Part shown: positions 50,816-64,000 of the stretch, piece by piece
Position numbering within the stretch: position 1 is the first letter of the stretch
Layout: every line of letters begins with the position of its first letter
Source: Escherichia coli
GTDB lineage: Bacteria; Pseudomonadota; Gammaproteobacteria; Enterobacterales; Enterobacteriaceae
Direction: 5' to 3' (one strand)
Assembly: GCF_050920415.1 (NCBI RefSeq)
Contig: NZ_CP169309.1
DNA: 64,000 bases
Notes under the pieces: model-generated
What the model was told of the DNA's origin: nothing
Databases searched by the model: none
Seen by the model: the letters and a program-made list of their open reading frames with translations, nothing else
Made by a program: the position numbers and the translations under genes

Positions 50816-50837
50816 TGCTCTGATGCAGTCAGTTTTC

Positions 50838-50872
50838 GTAGGCCAGATAAGGCGTTCACGCCGCATCTGGCA
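50838..50872. repeat. REP (repetitive extragenic palindromic) element between convergent topB and gdhA
   Basis: Reverse complement tgccagatgcggcgtgaacgccttatctggcctac matches the Y-type REP consensus (GCCGGATGCGGCGTGAACGCCTTATCCGGCCTAC). Confidence 0.8.
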
Positions 50873-50898
50873 TAAACGCCTGAAACGGCGCTAATGAC

Positions 50899-53209: not shown

Positions 53210-53830
53210 GTGTTAGACCGCCATCTTCATCCCCGAATTAAACCTTTGTTGCATCAGTGTGTGAAGGTTCTGGATAAACCTGGTATCACGCCAGATGGTT
53301 TAACGTTAGTGGGGTTTGCTATCGGCGTGTTGGCATTGCCGTTTCTGGCACTGAGCTGGTATCTGGCGGCGCTGATTGCCATTTTACTAAACAGATTGCT
53401 TGATGGTCTGGACGGCGCGCTGGCACGGCGTCGAGGCCTCACCGACGCAGGCGGCTTTCTCGATATCTCGTTGGATTTCCTTTTTTACGCGCTGGTGCCT
53501 TTTGGGTTTATCCTCGCCGCACCGGAGCAAAACGCGCTGGCAGGCGGCTGGCTGCTGTTTGCGTTTATCGGCACGGGCAGCAGTTTTCTCGCTTTTGCTG
53601 CGCTGGCGGCGAAACATCAGATTGATAATCCCGGTTATGCGCATAAATCGTTTTATTATCTGGGCGGGTTAACCGAAGGCAGCGAGACGATTTTGCTGTT
53701 TGTTCTGAGTTGTCTCTTGCCGGCTTATTTTCCGTGGTTTGCGTGGATATTTGGCGCGCTGTGCTGGATGACGACCTTTACGCGGGTGTGGAGTGGATAT
53801 CTGACGCTGAAGTCGCTCCAGCGTCAGTAG
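53210..53830 (+). CDS. ynjF: YnjF, CDP-alcohol phosphatidyltransferase-family membrane protein (206 aa)
   Basis: GTG start. Motif DGxxAR...G...D...D (DGLDGALARRRGLTDAGGFLDISLD). Confidence 0.85.
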   Translation: MLDRHLHPRIKPLLHQCVKVLDKPGITPDGLTLVGFAIGVLALPFLALSWYLAALIAILLNRLLDGLDGALARRRGLTDAGGFLDISLDFLFYALVPFGFILAAPEQNALAGGWLLFAFIGTGSSFLAFAALAAKHQIDNPGYAHKSFYYLGGLTEGSETILLFVLSCLLPAYFPWFAWIFGALCWMTTFTRVWSGYLTLKSLQRQ

Positions 53831-53838
53831 TTGCAATG

Positions 53839-55146
53839 TTATTTGCTGCTGTCCGGGCCGCGCTCACCGGTTGCTACGGGATTTTTCGGATCGCTGCTCC
53901 ATTCGTACCAGCCGCCGTCGTAAACGGAGACGTTATTCCAGCCCATTGCTCGTGCGTACATAAAGGTTTCGGACGCGCGCCAGCCGGTGCCGCAGTAGAA
54001 TGAAACTTGCTGATCTGGTTTGATATTCCATGCTTTCCACATAGCGGCAATATCATCGGCGCTACGCATGGTGCCATCCGGGTTATGGAAATCCTCCATA
54101 TGCGTCGAGTCGCTACCAGCGTGTCCCCAACGGGCTCCGGCTATTTCACCTTTTGGCTTAATATAGCTGTAACCACTGGTCGTACCGATAAATTCTGGCC
54201 ACGAACGAATGCTCACCAGCGATGCATCCTGGCGATGCAGCAGCCCACGGGCCTGTTCCATATCAAGCATCAACTGCGGTTGCGCCGGGATCTTCACGCC
54301 GAAATCCGGTTCAGCTTTCACTTTCGGTGGCGTTCCGCGCTCAACAGGCAGTCCCGCGTCGGACCAGGTTTGCCAGCCGCCGTCCAGCAGGCGCACATCT
54401 TTCACCCCTGCATAGAGCATAATCTGTGCTACACGCGCTGCTGCGTATACATCACGACCATATAGAATCACCGTGGTGTCATGACGAATGCCATGTTTTG
54501 CCAGCATCGCTTTCAGTTGTTCATCAGAGACTTTATTCCACAGCGGTTCGCTTTCCACTTCATTGGTATCGATGTAATCCGCGCCGGGAATATGGCTGAT
54601 AAGGTAAAGCTTAGGAGCGCCCCAGGCCGCTTCAATGACTTTCCAGTCACCGGCAGGTTTCGCTGTAACGTCTTTTCCTTGTTGCAGGTCATGCAGCCAT
54701 TGCGGATAAACCAGCTGCTCAAAGTGCGGCAGTTTTTGCAGACGGGAAGGTTCGCTTAGCGCGTCACTCAAAATGGAGATATGCGTAAAACCTGCTTTTT
54801 GCAGTCGCGTTTTGACGGCGTCGACATCTTTGTCATTACCGTACAGCGCCACCGGAGCGTCGGTTTTCAGGTTATGTTGCTTGATCCACGCGTTGAGCTG
54901 TTCGGTGCTCATTTTGTCGAGCCAGCTAGCAGAGAGGTTTAAGGCGGCAGGTTCATGACCAGAAGGGCCATTTAAGGTTTGTGGCCAGCCGTTATAAAAC
55001 GCGCTGGGGCGAGTATCTATCGCTTTGCCATTTTGTTGTTGAAGCTGGTCAAGTGTAAGAGGCTTCGCCAGTTCAGCGGCCCACGAAGAAGCGCAAGCCA
55101 GCCCTAAAGCCATTGCCAGCGCGGTCATTTGAGAAACACGTTTCAT
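53839..55146 (-). CDS. ynjE: YnjE, periplasmic three-rhodanese-domain thiosulfate sulfurtransferase (435 aa)
   Basis: Starts MKRVSQMTALAMALGLACASSWA (signal peptide). Rhodanese active-site Cys (CGTGWRA). Confidence 0.9.
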   Translation of the reverse strand: MKRVSQMTALAMALGLACASSWAAELAKPLTLDQLQQQNGKAIDTRPSAFYNGWPQTLNGPSGHEPAALNLSASWLDKMSTEQLNAWIKQHNLKTDAPVALYGNDKDVDAVKTRLQKAGFTHISILSDALSEPSRLQKLPHFEQLVYPQWLHDLQQGKDVTAKPAGDWKVIEAAWGAPKLYLISHIPGADYIDTNEVESEPLWNKVSDEQLKAMLAKHGIRHDTTVILYGRDVYAAARVAQIMLYAGVKDVRLLDGGWQTWSDAGLPVERGTPPKVKAEPDFGVKIPAQPQLMLDMEQARGLLHRQDASLVSIRSWPEFIGTTSGYSYIKPKGEIAGARWGHAGSDSTHMEDFHNPDGTMRSADDIAAMWKAWNIKPDQQVSFYCGTGWRASETFMYARAMGWNNVSVYDGGWYEWSSDPKNPVATGERGPDSSK

Positions 55147-55212
55147 CGAAAATCCCGACATTGTAGTTTTGAGTGCGCCATTCTGAACTGACGCATTGGG
55201 AAAAACTTTGCG

Positions 55213-55866
55213 TTATCGCAGTTTGTTGTAATTTTCTGACCACTGCGCCATATCCAGAACAGAACTATCAGCAGGAACATCCTGGATATCGTGCGTTACC
55301 TGAACGACGGGGATCGCCATGGCGCGAATTTCGCTGAACACCCACTGGCGAAAATTATCGCGCAGAGCCACATCAAGACGGCTGAACGGCTCATCCAGGA
55401 GTAACGCTCTTGGCTGGGCGAGAAGGGCGCGTAGCAGAGCAACGCGCGCTCGCTGACCGCCAGACAAAGTGGCAGGATCCTGATGGAAAGCTCCGTCAAG
55501 GCCTGAACGCTCAAGTGCATCATTCACGGCATTACGTCGGGCATTCCCCTTAAGTGTCTCCGGTAGCGCCAGCAGTAAATTTTGCCCGACGCTGAACTGG
55601 TCAAATAACAGTGCATCCTGGAAAAGAATGCCAATCTGACGCTGTGCGGTGGGTTGCATGTCAATCCGTTGCTCATTGAGCCATAGCTCACCTGCACAAG
55701 AAAACTGTCCGGCCAGCGCACCAATCATCCATGAAAACAGTGTAGATTTTCCACAGCCAGACGGCCCCATTAACGTGACAATGTCACCTTTATCCACCGT
55801 AAAGTTAACGTTTGTCAGCAAGCGGCTTTCTGGTAAACGTAGCGAAACATTTTTCACGCAGAGCAT
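55213..55866 (-). CDS. ynjD: YnjD, ABC transporter ATP-binding protein (217 aa)
   Basis: Walker A GPSGCGKST. ABC signature LSGGQRARV. Walker B LLLDEP. Confidence 0.9.
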   Translation of the reverse strand: MLCVKNVSLRLPESRLLTNVNFTVDKGDIVTLMGPSGCGKSTLFSWMIGALAGQFSCAGELWLNEQRIDMQPTAQRQIGILFQDALLFDQFSVGQNLLLALPETLKGNARRNAVNDALERSGLDGAFHQDPATLSGGQRARVALLRALLAQPRALLLDEPFSRLDVALRDNFRQWVFSEIRAMAIPVVQVTHDIQDVPADSSVLDMAQWSENYNKLR

Positions 55867-57401
55867 TAGCGGAGTCCTTGTCTGACATAACCTACCCATT
55901 TTGCGACTAACGCGGTCAGGGCAAAAATAATAAGCGGCAACAGTAGTTGCCATAAAGCCTGGGCGGCGAGAATGCCGTTGCTGCCGCCGCTGCTTAATGC
56001 CACCGCTTCAGTGGTGAGCGTCGGAAAACGCCCCGCGCCCAGCCACAGAGTCGGCATATACTGCGCAATACTGACTGAAAATCCTACCGCGAAGGCAATC
56101 AGCGCAGGGCGCAACATGAGTGGGCATTTCACGTAAAAGAAGATTTTGGCCCGCGACCAGCCCAGTGTTTGCGCAATCAAAATTAACCGTGAATCAATGC
56201 GCTGCCAGGCGGGTTGCAGGATAAACAGCATCCACGGCATTACCCACAGCAGATGCCCCCAGACCACCGCTGTCCAGCTCCCATCTATGTTCAGCCATAG
56301 CGCCAGCATGTACTGGCCCGCCACCAGCGGCAGAGCGGGTAATAAAATGGGCAACCAGAGCCACAACTGGCGACGCTTTGCCCCCCATTCCAGCCACAGC
56401 AGTAACAGGACCAAAGCGATAAACGTCGCCACCAGCCCCATTGTCAGGCTGTTGATGAGCGCTTCACTATTGATCGTCGACTGATCCGCGAGGATCGCCA
56501 GCAGAACCACACACAGCACACCGGTTAAGGGTAAAAAACTCGCCAGTGTATTGCCGGGTAATAAAGGCGTGGCGGGCTTACGAACGCCATCTACGCGGGG
56601 AATGGTGCACTGCCAGGCGCGCCAAAGTAAATAGCCCAGCAAAACGTAGACGGCGAGTAACAGCATCAGCAGCAGGCTGGCGAGTGCGCCTTTCATCTGT
56701 TGATCGGCGTCGCCTTGGGTTAACCACTGCCAGCTAATTACCGCCAGCGTCGGTGGATTACCCGGCCCGAGAATAATTGCCACATCCACGACCGACAACG
56801 ACCATGCCACAATAGCCAGCATCGCCATTGCCAGTGCAGGCGCGACGGAGGGCAACAACAACCAGTTCAGACATTGCCAGCGGCTGTAGCCCAGCGAATC
56901 CAGTACAATAACCTGCTGCAACAGCCGTTTCTCGCTCAATACTGCCGCTAAGATCCACAGCAGAAATGCGCTTTCTTTCACCGCCAGGGTAAGGCCCAGC
57001 CCAATACCCAATTTATCCATCGGCGGAGTGAGAAAAGGAAAAACCTGATAAACCAGGCCACCTTCAGCAAACAGCAACAGGGCGCTGGTGGCAAAAGCCA
57101 CATGGGGAATGGCGAGCAGCCACGGCAGACGGGCGCACATACGCTGCCATTTCGGCCCAGGCCACAGCGCCATAATTACCAGCAGGGCAATCGTCAATGC
57201 GCCGAGCGCCGCGATGGTTGTTGACACCAGTGTTGCCAGTAAGGCCTGCGGTAGCTGCGGATCGGCAAATAACGCCTGCCAGTGTGCCAACGACAAAGCA
57301 GGCGATATCAGCGTGAGAGCTGCCGGGATCAGCGGTGCATAAATCACCGCCACCATCGCCCACAGCAACAAGATTAATGCGTACCGTAACGGTGTAGCCA
57401 T
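55866..57401 (-). CDS. ynjC: YnjC, ABC transporter permease with fused double TM domain (511 aa)
   Basis: Polytopic membrane protein. Its stop overlaps the ynjD start. Confidence 0.88.
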   Translation of the reverse strand: MATPLRYALILLLWAMVAVIYAPLIPAALTLISPALSLAHWQALFADPQLPQALLATLVSTTIAALGALTIALLVIMALWPGPKWQRMCARLPWLLAIPHVAFATSALLLFAEGGLVYQVFPFLTPPMDKLGIGLGLTLAVKESAFLLWILAAVLSEKRLLQQVIVLDSLGYSRWQCLNWLLLPSVAPALAMAMLAIVAWSLSVVDVAIILGPGNPPTLAVISWQWLTQGDADQQMKGALASLLLMLLLAVYVLLGYLLWRAWQCTIPRVDGVRKPATPLLPGNTLASFLPLTGVLCVVLLAILADQSTINSEALINSLTMGLVATFIALVLLLLWLEWGAKRRQLWLWLPILLPALPLVAGQYMLALWLNIDGSWTAVVWGHLLWVMPWMLFILQPAWQRIDSRLILIAQTLGWSRAKIFFYVKCPLMLRPALIAFAVGFSVSIAQYMPTLWLGAGRFPTLTTEAVALSSGGSNGILAAQALWQLLLPLIIFALTALVAKWVGYVRQGLR

Positions 57402-58540
57402 TCTTGTTCCAGCGCATTTACCCAACCTGCGTGCGGTTCAGCCAGTACCGGCGGCAGATCCTGCGGCATTCTTGATTGCAATATTTCATGCTGCCCGTCA
57501 GGCAGTTTTTGCGGATCGAGAACCGATGGATCGCCCCAGACAGCAGGGTCTGCTTTACGTAGCTGTGCATCAGGTGAGAGCAGGAAATTGGCAACCACCT
57601 TCGCCGCAGCACTGGCATTCGCGTTAGCAGGAATGGTGACAAAATGCACGTTGCCAATCATCCCCTCGTTAAAACCAAAACTGTAACTGCTTGCCGGCAA
57701 ATCGCCACTGGCGATTTTTTGCTGGGCATGTGCAGGATTAAAGGTCAGCGACAGGCGCAATGTGCCAGCTTTCAGCAGAGCATCCATCCGCGCGGGCGAA
57801 GGTGGGAAATCCTTTCCTTCGCGCCATAAATACGGATGCAGCGCATCAAGATATTGCCACAAGGGCGCAGTGATACGGGCGAAAGTCGCATCGTTCGGCG
57901 CTTCTTTTAATGCTGCGGGATCTGGCGTCAGCATAATCAGTAACTGTTCAAGAAATGCGGTGCCAGTAAAGTCTGGCGGGCGCGGATAGGTAACCGTGCC
58001 AGGATTGGCTGTAGCAAATTCCAGTAAGGCTTGCGGTGTTTGTGGTGGCTGTGGCGTAACATCGCGGCGGGCGATAAACGTCAGTTGAGCGCCGCCCCAC
58101 GGCGATTCTGCGCCTTCGACAGGTACAGAAAAATCTTCCCGTACCGGCAGTTGTGTATCGACATAACGCCAGTTTGGCAGAGTCTCAGCCCAGCCGGTTT
58201 GCAGTAAATTGGCCTCTTTTAAAGTGCGGAAGTTTTCGCCGTTCACCCAGAGCAGATCCACCGAACCGCCTGTCTCGCGCCCGGCTGCGGCTTCGGTCTG
58301 AATGCGCTTCACCGCGTCTGCGGCATCCGCCAGGCGGACAATCTTCAGGTTTATATCATAATGGGTTTTCATCTCGCCGCTAACCCAGTCGAGATAGCGG
58401 TTAATTGCGGTATCGCCGCCCCAGGCGTTAAACCAGACGGTTTGCCCTTTGGCCTCATTTTTAACTTCCTGCCAGTCACTGGCATGTGTTGCCAGAGAAA
58501 ACAGCGATAACAATCCCAGCAACCACCCACAATGGCGCAT
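57374..58540 (-). CDS. ynjB: YnjB, ABC transporter periplasmic substrate-binding protein (388 aa)
   Basis: Signal peptide LLSLFSLATHA. Overlaps the ynjC start by 28 bp. Confidence 0.88.
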   Translation of the reverse strand: MRHCGWLLGLLSLFSLATHASDWQEVKNEAKGQTVWFNAWGGDTAINRYLDWVSGEMKTHYDINLKIVRLADAADAVKRIQTEAAAGRETGGSVDLLWVNGENFRTLKEANLLQTGWAETLPNWRYVDTQLPVREDFSVPVEGAESPWGGAQLTFIARRDVTPQPPQTPQALLEFATANPGTVTYPRPPDFTGTAFLEQLLIMLTPDPAALKEAPNDATFARITAPLWQYLDALHPYLWREGKDFPPSPARMDALLKAGTLRLSLTFNPAHAQQKIASGDLPASSYSFGFNEGMIGNVHFVTIPANANASAAAKVVANFLLSPDAQLRKADPAVWGDPSVLDPQKLPDGQHEILQSRMPQDLPPVLAEPHAGWVNALEQEWLHRYGTH

Positions 58541-58549
58541 CATCTCTCC

Positions 58550-59098
58550 TTAAGAACGTTTTTCAGGAATACGGCACAGCCCCTGAGCGGGAATGTCCAT
58601 GGCAGAATTAAAACGGGCTGACAGATTTTGCAGGCCGATCAATGCCGTCAGTTCGGTGAGCGCCTGGGCGTCAAAATGCGCAGCCAGTCGGGTACGCAGG
58701 GCATCATCGACCGTTGGCGGCGTTACGCTGGCGGCTTCGGCGTACTCCAGCGCCAGCCGTTCTTCATCGCTAAAGAGCGGGCTTTGCCGCCAGTCAGCCA
58801 CTGCCAGCAACTTATCGGTGCTGCCGGTACGCTCGGCGACTTTCATACTGGTGATATCCACGCAAAACTCACACAGGCACATTTGCGCAATGCGCGCGCT
58901 GACAAGCGATCGCACTACCGGATCGAGCGGTGAGCGTTTACGCTCCAGCCAACCGACAAACATCGACACCAGATAAAAGATAAACGGGATCCGTCCCCAC
59001 CAGCGAATTGGACTTAGCACCTCGCCGTAATGGCGACGATGCAGCCACGCCTGCGGACGTAAACTTAAAGGAATTTTGCTAAGCGGTGGTAAACCCAT
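58550..59098 (-). CDS. ynjA: YnjA, carboxymuconolactone decarboxylase (AhpD-like) family protein (182 aa)
   Basis: 182 aa. Syntenic position upstream of ynjB. Confidence 0.85.
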   Translation of the reverse strand: MGLPPLSKIPLSLRPQAWLHRRHYGEVLSPIRWWGRIPFIFYLVSMFVGWLERKRSPLDPVVRSLVSARIAQMCLCEFCVDITSMKVAERTGSTDKLLAVADWRQSPLFSDEERLALEYAEAASVTPPTVDDALRTRLAAHFDAQALTELTALIGLQNLSARFNSAMDIPAQGLCRIPEKRS

Positions 59099-59802
59099 CA
59101 GGCATTCCTCTTCTGGCGTTCAAGCCATATTTTTTTCGCCATAAAAATCACCACGGTCAGGGCAAACAGAATAAACAGTCCGGTGACAAACCAGAAGGTA
59201 CCGCCCGTTAACATACTGCCCGCCCAGGAATAAACAATAGTCGCCGGTAACTGACCAAGCCCGGTGGCGATAAAAAACGAGCGAAAACGTATTGACGTCA
59301 AACCGGCAGCATAGCTGATTGGATCGAAAGGGACAAAAGGCAATAACCGGCATACCAGGATAGTGTGTTTGCCGTAGCGAGTGAAAAAGCCGTCCATACT
59401 GTCAAGCATGGTTTTACCGGTTAATTTTTCCACCACTTCGCGGCCCATTACTCTGGCGATAAAAAAGCATAGCGCCGCGCCCGCCATAGAACTGGTCCAC
59501 GACAGCAAGCCGCCCCAGAACGCGCCAAACAGCGACGCATTGGCAAAGGTGATCAAAAATGCAGGCAGCGGTGCAGCAATGGCCTGTAAGATCATTAAAA
59601 AGAATGAGACCAGTGCAGCCTGCGTGCCGTAAGACGCAATAAAGCGTTCAATGCCTTGTTGATCCACGGCGGCAAAGGCTACAAGGCTGCTGTTAATAAA
59701 CTCATAAACGCCGGGAATCAGCGCCCATGCGAGCAGCGCAACAATTAACAAGATGATAATGACGCCACGCCAGAGCCACATTTTACGGTTTTTATCTCTC
59801 AT
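59098..59802 (-). CDS. ydjZ: YdjZ, DedA/TVP38/TMEM64-family inner membrane protein (234 aa)
   Basis: MRDKNRKMWLWRGVIIILLIVALL... Its stop overlaps the ynjA start (ATGA). Confidence 0.85.
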   Translation of the reverse strand: MRDKNRKMWLWRGVIIILLIVALLAWALIPGVYEFINSSLVAFAAVDQQGIERFIASYGTQAALVSFFLMILQAIAAPLPAFLITFANASLFGAFWGGLLSWTSSMAGAALCFFIARVMGREVVEKLTGKTMLDSMDGFFTRYGKHTILVCRLLPFVPFDPISYAAGLTSIRFRSFFIATGLGQLPATIVYSWAGSMLTGGTFWFVTGLFILFALTVVIFMAKKIWLERQKRNA

Positions 59803-59805
59803 CTT

Positions 59806-60510
59806 TCATCTTTGTTGTTCGGTTAAAGAGGTTTTATCAGAAGTGGTCAGTGCCACTTGTTTGTAACGGGCGTAGCATTTAGCAAGCTGAATAAGAATAA
59901 ACAGTATTAGCCCTGCCAGACAAAGTTTGAAAATAAATGATAATGTTATGCCTTCAGTAACAAGGTCGCTGGCCATAAAAGTATAAATAAAGATCCCCGG
60001 CAGAGTCGTGAATGCCGAAATAAAGGTATATGGCCAAAAGGCAATGGCGGTTAATCCGTAGGCGTAATTTTGAATATTGTAAGGAAATAGCGGAATTAAG
60101 CGGGTAAGAATAAGAAAATCGATACCGTTACGTGCAATCCCTTTCTCAATAGACTGAAAGACGGTGGTATCCCCAACATATTTCAGCACCAGTTCTCGCC
60201 CCATCCAGCGAGCAATCAAAAAGGAAACCGACGAAGCGAGCGTTGCTGCAACTAACGAAAGCAGAGTCCCCAAGAATGGACCAAAAATAATGCCACTGCC
60301 AATGACCAGGACACTACCGGGCAGCAGCAGAAGAGTGGCAATAACAAATAACAGAATATAAAGGCTGTAACCGAAAATACCACTCTGGCGAATAAGTGCC
60401 TGCAAGTGAGGAAGATCGCTAATGAAATTGAATATGCCTGAAGCATAAACAAGATAAATTGCCAGAGCAAAAGTCAGACTACCAACAACGAACTTACACT
60501 CAGCTTTCAT
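59806..60510 (-). CDS. ydjX: YdjX, DedA/TVP38/TMEM64-family inner membrane protein (234 aa)
   Basis: Paralog of ydjZ (GxxxVxxRLIPLFPYNIQNYAYGLT core). Ends 3 bp before the ydjZ start. Confidence 0.85.
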   Translation of the reverse strand: MKAECKFVVGSLTFALAIYLVYASGIFNFISDLPHLQALIRQSGIFGYSLYILLFVIATLLLLPGSVLVIGSGIIFGPFLGTLLSLVAATLASSVSFLIARWMGRELVLKYVGDTTVFQSIEKGIARNGIDFLILTRLIPLFPYNIQNYAYGLTAIAFWPYTFISAFTTLPGIFIYTFMASDLVTEGITLSFIFKLCLAGLILFILIQLAKCYARYKQVALTTSDKTSLTEQQR

Positions 60511-60630
60511 CGTGGAGATTTCCTATATCAAGCCTTGATAATAGAGAAGTGAAAAACGCGATGACGGTATAACAAACCTAAGCTGGTCACAAATCCTTAC
60601 TGCCAGTTTCTTGATTATCCTCAAGAATCG

Positions 60631-60659
60631 GCCTCCTGACCTGGAGGATGTCAGGAGGC
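60631..60659 (-). terminator. Stem-loop downstream of xthA
   Basis: gcctcctgac-ctggaggat-gtcaggaggc, 10-bp arms. Weak U-tract. Confidence 0.45.
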
Positions 60660-60666
60660 TGCGTCA

Positions 60667-61473
60667 TTAGCGGCGGAAGGTCGCCCACACAGGCGCGTGA
60701 TCGGACGGTTTTTCCATGCTGCGGATTTCATAGTCGATGCCGGTTTCTACGCAACAGTCTGCCAGCGGTTGGCTGGCGAGCAGCAGGTCGATACGCAGAC
60801 CACGGTTATCGTCAAAACCTTTTGAGCGGTAATCAAACCATGAGAAACGATCTGCTGTTTCCGGATTCGCATGGCGGAAGGTATCCACCAGCCCCCAACT
60901 TATCAGCCTGTCCATCCATTCACGTTCTTCAGGCAGGAAAGAACATTTACCAGTACGCAGCCAGCGTTTGCGGTTCTCTTCGCCAATGCCGATATCCAGG
61001 TCGGTGGGGCTGATATTCATATCGCCCATAATCAGCACCGGATTTTCACGCTTGAGTTCGGTTTCCAAATAATTTTGCAGATTCTGATAAAACTGCGCCT
61101 TCGCCGGGAATTTTATCGGATGGTCGCGGCTTTCACCCTGCGGGAAGTAACCGTTGATCACGGTGACATTGCCCAGCGGCGAGGGGATTTCCGCCATAAT
61201 AATTCGCCGCTGCGCCTCTTCGCCGTCGTCAGGGAAGCCGCGACGCACGGCAATCGGCGTCTCTTTGGTCAGCAGCGCCACGCCATAATGGCCTTTCTGC
61301 CCGTGATAAAACACGTTGTAGCCGAGCTTCGCCACCTCTTCGAGCGGAAACATATCGTCATGAACTTTTGTCTCCTGCAGGCCAATCACATCCGGTTGGT
61401 GCTTTTCGACGATGGCTTCAAGCTGGTGAGGTCTGGCGCGCAGGCCGTTGATATTAAAAGAGACAAATTTCAT
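60667..61473 (-). CDS. xthA: Exodeoxyribonuclease III XthA (268 aa)
   Basis: [36 protein letters not shown]... Matches the XthA sequence as I recall it. Confidence 0.95.
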
Positions 61474-61829
61474 AGTCGCTGCCATTTATTCAGATAAAGA
61501 GTGCGTGGATGGTAGCAGAATTTCGCTTTGCTTACCGCCTGTTGTTAAGTGATTTGATCGATGGTTGTTAATGATGTCAACGATGGCGCAAAAAATGCCC
61601 GCTTTTGGTGCGCGCTGCGTCAGAATGGCGCAGTAATTTCCAGTAAATTTCGTCAATGATCACAATTCCAGAATTATATTTTACTTCTGCATAACATTGC
61701 GTTTTTTATTCTTTTTATTCACCTGCATCGCAAACGTATTCACTTTATATGCACTTTAAATGCATATGGTTTGGTTATAACTCCTTGATTTCCAGTTAGC
61801 CACCGCGGTTTATGCACTTTTATCACTGG

Positions 61830-61846
61830 CTGGCACGAACCCTGCA
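61830..61846 (+). promoter_or_regulatory. σ54 (-24/-12) promoter of the astCADBE operon
   Basis: CTGGCACGAACCCTGCA fits TGGCAC-N5-TTGCA. It lies about 75 bp upstream of the astC ATG. An upstream AT-rich region has TGCA-containing half-sites consistent with NtrC/ArgR control of ast. Confidence 0.7.
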
Positions 61847-61882
61847 ATCTACATTTACAGCGCAAACATTACTTATTATTAA

Positions 61883-64000
<2,118 letters not shown>

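Follow-up and report, generated by a model that had tools for sequence, protein, structure and literature searches.

A stretch of 64,000 nucleotides from Escherichia coli (NCBI RefSeq assembly GCF_050920415.1, contig NZ_CP169309.1; the whole stretch is called the window below) carries two genes for DedA/VTT-family membrane proteins, ydjX' and ydjZ, side by side and without the gene ydjY. Very probably, a chromosomal segment of ~11 kb, reaching from astA to ynjE, has been replaced in this genuine E. coli via homologous recombination by DNA of Escherichia fergusonii or of a very close relative, and the missing ydjY is a matter of allelic replacement. The direction of the transfer, from E. fergusonii to E. 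coli, is suggested by the distribution of the haplotype, since it is typical of E. fergusonii and occurs in only 1.3% of E. coli.

The ydjX' protein finds 99% matches that are named E. fergusonii in a large protein collection, the proteins of the window are listed by NCBI as 'MULTISPECIES [Escherichia]', and the ydjZ cluster holds CAQ88838.1, a protein of ATCC 35469. At L105, an E. fergusonii locus that resembles the type strain, ydjX' and ydjZ are 99.6 and 97.6% identical to the window at the nucleotide level, and the two sequences can be aligned without gaps over 10.8 kb at 96.0% identity. The E. fergusonii locus xthA-ydjX'-ydjZ-ynjA of GCA_900450565.1 (UGFW01000002.1), which encodes CAQ88838.1, shares with the window the gene order, the 3-bp gap between the two genes, the junction string and an ATG at codon 8 of ydjZ; it differs in that the window has an E. 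coli host, in that the block is 96% and not 100% identical, and in that E. coli-type sequence resumes in the window at ~53700. In ydjX', the number of synonymous substitutions per synonymous site (dS) between the window type and E. fergusonii is 0.01.

The extent of the likeness was followed in comparisons of 500 bp each. From ~64900 to ~53700, E. fergusonii loci match the block at 96-100% identity and K-12 matches it at 88-97%, whereas outside it (53160-51000 in the window; 69000-70400 in the source genome) the identity to K-12 is 95-98% and that to E. fergusonii only 70-87%. The left edge lies just beyond the end of the window, in astA/astD, and the right edge between ynjE and ynjF. A further 20 kb elsewhere in the window are 97.4-98.1% identical to typical E. 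coli, and this ordinary identity outside the block identifies the host as a genuine E. coli. The window itself matches E. coli MFDS1022581 (NZ_CP169399.1) at 100% identity. A block nearer to the donor species is bordered at both edges (~64900 and ~53700) by sequence of the conspecific type, and this is the pattern of interspecies introgression, in which a core segment nearer to the sister species stands between conspecific flanks, as described for Campylobacter jejuni into Campylobacter coli (PMC3749442) and in broader surveys (PMC9650840, PMC12615716). In contrast to the genome-wide cases, a single locus of ~11 kb is concerned here, in a pair of species reported as generally non-recombining. 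Two further E. coli strains, N96 and 2017-02-2CC, have the same block boundaries as the window strain and are 98-100% identical to it outside the block, and one import into a common ancestor of the three is the simplest reading of these shared boundaries.

The features on which the argument depends are the following, in positions of the window.

59806..60510, minus strand: ydjX', 234 amino acids (WP_000642617.1, 'MULTISPECIES [Escherichia]'), the E. fergusonii-type allele of a gene for a DedA/VTT-family membrane protein.
59098..59802, minus strand: ydjZ, 234 amino acids (WP_001205126.1), the second DedA/VTT-family gene, with its first ~100 nt in the hyper-divergent block.
59808..59806, 59805..59803 and 59802..59800, minus strand: stop codon TGA of ydjX', spacer AAG and start codon ATG of ydjZ, read directly from the sequence.
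59799..59812: 7-bp tandem duplication, on the coding strand AAGATGA AAGATGA, after which GAGAT forms a partial third copy.
59792..59809, minus strand: MKDER*, a predicted out-of-frame open reading frame (ORF) of five codons, with its ATG at 59809 and its TAA at 59794..59792.
59779..59781, minus strand: ATG at codon 8 of ydjZ, from the junction alignments.
59700..60700: core of the hyper-divergent block relative to ordinary E. coli, comprising the xthA-ydjX spacer, ydjX' and the 5' end of ydjZ, in place of ydjX-ydjY-5'ydjZ of K-12.
53700..64000: E. fergusonii-like introgressed segment with astA/astC, xthA, ydjX', ydjZ and ynjA-ynjE, which extends ~900 bp beyond the end of the window.

A preliminary description of the window had set ydjX and ydjZ 3 bp apart and had given the positions of the stop and the start, and all of these coordinates are correct. 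It had also given the order ydjX-ydjY-ydjZ for K-12, which is indeed found in MG1655 between xthA and ynjA. The K-12 operon ydjX-ydjY-ydjZ-ynjABCD (b1750-b1756) occupies the same site between xthA and ynjA, continues into the same downstream genes and encodes a YdjZ with 90% identity, but it has the gene of the YdjY lipoprotein (domain NF040466) between the two DedA genes, with gaps of 4 and 14 nt and no overlap. The absence of ydjY from the window, likewise part of the preliminary description, is borne out: a tblastn search (E <= 1) finds no YdjY-like sequence in the whole 64 kb, YdjY proteins trimmed to their true start detect no remnant at the ydjX'/ydjZ junction, and the genome counts given below show that the gene has not been relocated. 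The YdjY family corresponds to NCBIfam NF040466 and Pfam PF27149, and the NCBIfam model was the one used here.

The allele of ydjX in the window is strikingly old. By phylogeny and by its position directly downstream of xthA and upstream of ydjZ, ydjX' is the ortholog of K-12 b1750; in RefSeq, the second gene bears the name ydjZ and the first has none. The identity of ydjX' to K-12 ydjX is 73%, a divergence of 27% in both nucleotides and protein, and the comparison by the method of Nei and Gojobori gives a dS of 1.36-1.54, 0.16 nonsynonymous substitutions per nonsynonymous site (dN) and a dN/dS of 0.12; the low dN/dS at such a dS indicates that both alleles are functional and that their split is very old. 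The flanking genes astC, xthA, ynjA and ynjB differ from K-12 by a dS of only 0.12-0.31, far exceeded by that of ydjX', which is not what a vertically inherited conspecific allele would show. In sliding comparisons of 100 bp, the identity to K-12 is 48-89% within ~60700-59700 and 91-100% on either side. ydjZ, with 89.7% amino acid identity to K-12 YdjZ, straddles this transition: at 59788-59716 it is only 69% identical to K-12, and beyond ~59600 the figure climbs to 91-98%.

Raw synonymous differences (pS) set a scale for this age. For ydjX, K-12 and the E. fergusonii type differ by 0.64, compared with 0.67-0.76 between genera and 0.37 between K-12 and E. albertii; for xthA, the corresponding values are 0.18, 0.51-0.65 and 0.37. 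The E. fergusonii ydjX allele is separated from the ydjX of other Escherichia at roughly genus-level depth. As the synonymous divergence of ydjX between E. coli and E. albertii equals that of the flanking genes (0.37), the haplotype with ydjY has been inherited vertically since before the split of E. albertii. The base composition of ydjX' is also distinct, with a GC content at third codon positions (GC3) of 0.38-0.40, compared with 0.57-0.62 in the neighbouring genes and 0.45-0.53 in ydjX of other Escherichia. The locus is an unexpectedly old polymorphism of two forms, in that two ydjX haplotypes of genus-level age coexist in E. coli.

The junction between the two genes has a history of its own. 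A perfect 7+7 repeat, TCATCTTTCATCTT, begins at 59799 (window strand), and, as the preliminary description had observed, one copy holds the stop of the first gene and the other the start of the next. Eight perfect 7+7 tandem repeats are present in the window, where a first-order Markov model leads one to expect ~3.6 (range 0-9), so that the repeat on its own is unremarkable and it is the single-copy relatives which reveal a real duplication. In E. coli EA2 and D7, the single-copy junction reads ...CAAAGATGAAAGATAAAAAC, the stop of ydjX' and the start of ydjZ overlap as ATGA, the junction segment measures 1594 bp instead of the 1601 bp of the window form, and YdjZ begins with MKDKNRK; in the window it begins with MRDKNRK from the second copy. 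The difference amounts to one additional 7-bp copy and one A-to-G change. The expanded junction of the window is also that of all E. fergusonii loci examined (L087-L091, L104-L107), and a string of 60 nt across it is identical in seven loci of the E. fergusonii type. Stop and start overlap in the ydjY-less loci of Citrobacter and Kluyvera too, which together with EA2 and D7 makes the overlap the older state and the 3-nt gap the derived one.

To judge from these alignments, the 7-bp repeat is a derived tandem duplication by slipped-strand mispairing, being single-copy in the closest relatives and in the outgroups. The preliminary description had read the ORF MKDER* as a remnant: the ORF can be read as described, but its first three codons are the old ydjZ start, and by the same comparison it is the original beginning of ydjZ (M-K-D), stranded out of frame by the duplication, and not a relic of ydjY. 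The course of events was very probably as follows. The locus of E. fergusonii is xthA-ydjX'-ydjZ-ynjA, without ydjY. In the older ydjY-less form, the stop of ydjX' and the start of ydjZ share an ATGA, and this form survives in those E. coli carriers examined that are not of the window type; the 7-bp duplication would be a later slipped-strand event within the E. fergusonii lineage. Duplication of AAGATGA would have left a stop in the first copy and a start in the second, 3 nt apart and with both frames intact, and would have turned the old ydjZ start codon into the out-of-frame ORF of five codons. The duplication is tolerated because it is placed exactly on the shared stop and start, so that both signals were restored. 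At codon 8 of ydjZ, ATG is found only in the haplotype that bears the duplication, with ATC or ACC in all others; this ATG stands 10 nt past the stop of the MKDER* ORF and is a candidate for an alternative, back-up or compensatory start of ydjZ.

How often the haplotype occurs was determined in 5,426 complete E. coli genomes, in line with a survey that the preliminary description had proposed: 5,353 have ydjY, 70 have the ydjX' haplotype and three lack the locus. Since these counts sum exactly, ydjY is absent from the 70 genomes and has not moved elsewhere in them. By identity to the window, the 70 carriers fall into three genomes at 99% or more, a group of 42 at 95.5-96% and another of 25 at 94.9%; a set of megablast matches at ~77% (n = 15), which represent ordinary ydjX alleles with a common 28-nt word, was left out. 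The 7-bp duplication is found in three E. coli genomes, those of the window strain, N96 and 2017-02-2CC, and the junction segment of the other carriers is 7 bp shorter among those listed, two of them having an IS1 insertion as well. The latter concerns E. coli CX08 and CX12 (NZ_CP073718.1, NZ_CP073719.1), in which IS1A is inserted in ydjX'.

The single-copy ydjY-less E. coli (EA2, D7, AW1.7, ECONIH4/5 and others; 67 complete genomes) belong to the same ydjX' clade at 94-96% nucleotide identity and resemble the window in the absence of ydjY and in protein lengths. They differ from it by a single AAGATGA, the ATGA overlap, the start MKDK in place of MRDK and, in EA2, a foreign block of ~1.2-1.6 kb. 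In that strain, the foreign segment spans only ~60950-59300, and its flanks are mostly 98-100% K-12-like. The dS of EA2 or D7 to E. fergusonii ydjX' is 0.08-0.10, under the local species background of 0.16-0.29, and the two values, 0.01 for the window and 0.08-0.10 for EA2 and D7, point to one recent transfer and one older one. A mosaic ydjX was also met, in the metagenome ERZ773478 (L093 10001-10711; the same protein in ERZ1304306): 107 of 115 informative sites are of the window type, all 74 that come next are of the K-12 type, and ydjY follows. This mosaic, in which the switch falls within the conserved core of ydjX, shows directly that the two haplotypes do recombine.

Other explanations of the missing ydjY have to be weighed against the import. 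With most E. coli the region shares only 89% identity, and the initial surprise at this figure is all that would speak for an assembly error or a mislabelled E. fergusonii genome. The identical junction recurs in E. coli, in three complete assemblies of independent origin, as well as in nine or more E. fergusonii contigs obtained by different projects, and ordinary E. coli sequence makes up the remainder of the window and stands on both sides of the block; we therefore rejected this artefact as hardly conceivable. A precise deletion of an intervening gene was one of the two options offered by the preliminary description; it would mean that ydjY was lost recently from a K-12-like locus in this E. 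coli lineage, perhaps via short direct repeats on either side of it. The intact flanking genes and the clean junction would be compatible with it, ydjY has been lost in place elsewhere (Pseudocitrobacter cyperus, Citrobacter sp. NCU1 and Awk4), and a weak junction-like similarity on either side of ydjY reaches p = 0.03-0.04 in K-12 and E. ruysiae. Yet the adjoining ydjX is 27% divergent with saturated dS, the first ~100 nt of ydjZ are divergent too, a block of ~11 kb is 96-100% E. fergusonii-like and no ydjY remnant is left, while the AAGATGA which the preliminary description had suggested looking for at both ends of ydjY in K-12 has no exact match in the K-12 locus. The similarity on either side of ydjY lacks significance in E. 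albertii, E. whittamii and MOD1, and three ydjY-containing loci outside Escherichia do not show it. A deletion of this kind is very improbable and, for the window, is refuted by the divergence of ydjX. In a related search, direct repeats flanking ydjY gave shuffle p values of 0.03-0.4 across five Escherichia and none were found in three other genera with ydjY; the junction likeness is marginal, inconsistent and largely that of ribosome-binding site plus ATG (AAGGAT...ATG), and an insertion or excision footprint of ydjY was not adopted as a reading.

If E. coli and E. fergusonii had each kept the ydjY-less haplotype as a polymorphism from before their split, through incomplete sorting or balancing selection, this would account for the coexistence of two very old haplotypes (dS ~1.4) in E. 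coli, for the three sub-types, 4-5% apart, within the ydjY-less clade, and for the tiny foreign block of EA2 amid K-12-like flanks, as expected after long recombination. We nevertheless regard such a shared polymorphism as quite unlikely, as the window type has a dS of 0.01 to E. fergusonii ydjX' with a likeness that reaches over ~11 kb of flanks, as the dS of 0.08-0.10 in EA2 and D7 is below the local species background and places coalescence after the species split, and as the frequency in E. coli is only 1.3%. Several observations weigh against the import itself or its simplest form. The dS of 0.08-0.10 in the 67 single-copy genomes fits an old transfer and still leaves strictly some room for a long-lived shared polymorphism, and part of the high ydjX dS could stem from the compositional shift (GC3 0.53 to 0.40), besides time. 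The identity of the block to individual E. fergusonii genomes is 96-99% and patchy, with ~91% at 61110-60860 and 90-93% near 57100, which means that the donor is not among the sampled strains or that erosion of the block has set in since the import. The species E. fergusonii also varies at the locus, L087 and L088 falling to 86% in places, and the ydjY-less state holds for the sampled E. fergusonii loci, which does not by itself prove fixation across the species. A scan of GTDB with one genome per species gave nothing above 75% to ydjX', the E. fergusonii representative, probably masked there, not being returned. Finally, PMC9830988 describes E. fergusonii as generally not recombining with E. 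coli, and the import is in this respect an exception and not an expected event.

The deeper origin of the two haplotypes has to be seen against the distribution of ydjY in the family. The order ydjX-ydjY-ydjZ is found in all other Escherichia representatives (E. coli, E. ruysiae, E. whittamii, E. albertii and two unnamed species), whereas ydjX is directly followed by ydjZ in representatives of Citrobacter, Kluyvera, Klebsiella, Raoultella and Pseudocitrobacter. At the same site, ydjY is present in [Enterobacter] lignolyticus (Pluralibacter lignolyticus), in one C. freundii assembly and in the enteric metagenome contig L098. In a bootstrapped neighbour-joining tree of YdjX, proteins group by taxon and not by ydjY status: L098, with ydjY, pairs with the ydjY-less P. 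cyperus at 100%, and the window-type clade (100%) is sister to the Escherichia clade with ydjY (99%), the joint clade receiving 81%. A decayed ydjY persists in P. cyperus (L017 4701-4880), where the end of the signal peptide is fused to the last ~25 codons with an internal stop (E = 7e-10), and the first 28 ydjY codons are kept in the ydjX-ydjZ spacer of Citrobacter sp. NCU1 and Awk4 (L016, L018 4728-4811). These remnants show that ydjY was lost in place more than once, independently, and the presence or absence of ydjY at this site has changed repeatedly across Enterobacteriaceae. Outside enterics, the YdjY family is widespread and highly conserved; a homolog with 50% identity in Sulfurospirillum arcachonense (L100 5001-5648) lies beside ferredoxin-like genes and not beside DedA genes, so that ydjY does not always go together with a DedA pair.

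Two oddities emerged among these loci. An enterobacterial xthA-ydjX-ydjZ arrangement, its xthA 89% identical to that of E. coli in amino acids, is deposited as 'Chryseobacterium sp. 18061' (L062, CACSKA010000006.1) and probably reflects contamination or mislabelling. In Citrobacter murliniae, C. portucalensis and C. werkmanii (L025, L033, L034), the longest ORF of ydjX starts 130-165 nt after the start of the tblastn match, which suggests that some ydjX genes of Citrobacter are truncated at the 5' end or interrupted by an internal stop.

As its second option, the preliminary description had considered that the direct adjacency is ancestral and that K-12 gained ydjY. At the level of the family, such an adjacency does exist in Citrobacter, Kluyvera, Klebsiella and Raoultella, but a gain by K-12 is contradicted by ydjY in every other Escherichia representative. 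A wider form of the idea takes ydjX'-ydjZ as the original state of Escherichia and lets the ancestor of E. albertii, the cryptic clades and E. coli acquire a foreign ydjX-ydjY-5'ydjZ cassette. Besides the overlapping ydjX-ydjZ adjacency in the four genera just named, it can draw on the position of E. fergusonii, which the literature places outside E. coli plus clades I-V, on the existence of possible ydjX-ydjY-ydjZ donors (P. lignolyticus, the C. freundii assembly and L098), and on the wide occurrence and conservation of the YdjY family beyond enterics. The local tree speaks differently: for the flanking xthA, pS is 0.18 between E. fergusonii and E. coli and 0.37 between E. albertii and E. coli, and a replacement common to E. 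albertii and E. coli, from which E. fergusonii is exempt, does not fit it. Moreover, the nearest outgroups in the YdjX tree have ydjY or a remnant of it, ydjX' is the compositionally aberrant allele (GC3 0.40), and no sampled outgroup ydjX from a locus with ydjY is especially near the K-12 type (dN 0.21-0.25 to all). We find this scenario rather doubtful, and note that the choice of which haplotype was replaced at the base of the genus depends on the branching order of E. fergusonii and E. albertii. Probably, and we hold this with moderate confidence, it was the E. fergusonii lineage which exchanged ydjX-ydjY-5'ydjZ for a ydjY-less cassette from an unsampled enterobacterial lineage of lower GC content, before the later import into E. 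coli.

With regard to function, both proteins contain the Pfam domain VTT_dom (PF09335), with 87.9 bits (E = 9.7e-25) for ydjX' and 86.5 bits (E = 2.5e-24) for ydjZ, well above the Pfam gathering score of 33.9 bits that defines membership. They thereby have a domain in common with the transporters of the DedA superfamily, such as YqjA/YghB and the undecaprenyl-phosphate flippases of the UptA/PopT type, but the equivalog scores are far lower: ydjZ reaches 35.7 bits against a cut-off of 250 for UptA (NF052604) and 27.9 bits against 236 for DedA, and ydjX' matches neither. With scores so far under the cut-offs, no substrate can be assigned to ydjX' or ydjZ. The two genes appear to encode co-transcribed DedA/VTT inner-membrane proteins that head the operon ydjX-ydjZ-ynjABCD; a promoter and terminator scan of the pair gave nothing exceeding shuffled expectation.

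A 4-nt ATGA overlap without a strong Shine-Dalgarno sequence is the classic geometry of translational coupling. Direct reading finds no strong ribosome-binding site ahead of ydjZ in either form of the junction, and for this reason ydjZ is probably translated by termination and reinitiation, in dependence on ydjX'. Compared with known ATGA/TGATG coupled pairs, the relatives' junction has the same overlap geometry, and the window differs by its succession of stop, 3 nt and start, together with a decoy ORF of five codons. On the duplicated junction, a terminating ribosome would first meet the old out-of-frame ATG and would find the in-frame ATG 3 nt past the stop, and the duplication may thus loosen the coupling of ydjX' and ydjZ without abolishing it.

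One could also imagine two ancient alternative cassettes, a DedA pair with the YdjY lipoprotein and a co-adapted ydjX' with a matching ydjZ N-terminus but without YdjY, both kept and exchanged by recombination across Escherichia species and other enterics. This view is speculative and we consider it unlikely; if it were true, YdjY would be an accessory subunit of a heteromeric YdjX-YdjZ transporter, and the parts that interact would be those set off by the edges of the haplotype (all of ydjX and the first ~30 codons of ydjZ). A search for functional literature on YdjY found none.

The immediate neighbours of the pair and the surroundings of the block complete the description.

58550..59098, minus strand: ynjA (CMD/AhpD-like), the next gene of the operon, whose start overlaps the ydjZ stop by 1 nt.
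60667..61473, minus strand: xthA (exonuclease III), the upstream flank, at whose 3' end the left edge of the hyper-divergent core is situated.

Just outside the imported block, a separate polymorphism concerns ynjI (DUF1266). K-12, EA2 and E. fergusonii L087 have this gene between gdhA and topB, and it is missing at that site (~50816-50898 of the window) in the window strain and likewise in N96 and 2017-02-2CC. The identity of E. coli and E. fergusonii falls to 65-87% at 53500-51000 of the window (ynjF-nudG-ynjH-gdhA) and in cho-ves-spy, compared with 92-99% in neighbouring genes; the divergent cho-ves-spy segment lies ~5-6 kb past the end of the window (L103/L102/L087). The ydjX block is accordingly not the sole hyper-divergent segment between the two species in this part of the chromosome.

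What was found here is an undescribed yet mechanistically ordinary interspecies allelic replacement, combined with a micro-duplication at the junction. It explains why RefSeq leaves the first gene without a name, and it cautions that the absence of a gene beside a short repeat need not mean a local deletion. It also provides a concrete case of an E. fergusonii import of ~11 kb into E. coli, along with an older one of ~1.2-1.6 kb in ~1.2% of complete genomes, in a pair of species which according to a review do not recombine in general (PMC9830988). At the junction, it illustrates how a frame-breaking duplication of 7 bp can be tolerated at an overlapping stop and start. For the family, ydjY is seen to be dispensable in nature, with several losses and a wholesale replacement in one species, and the co-variation of ydjX and the YdjZ N-terminus with the presence of ydjY offers an entry point for asking whether YdjX, YdjY and YdjZ cooperate.

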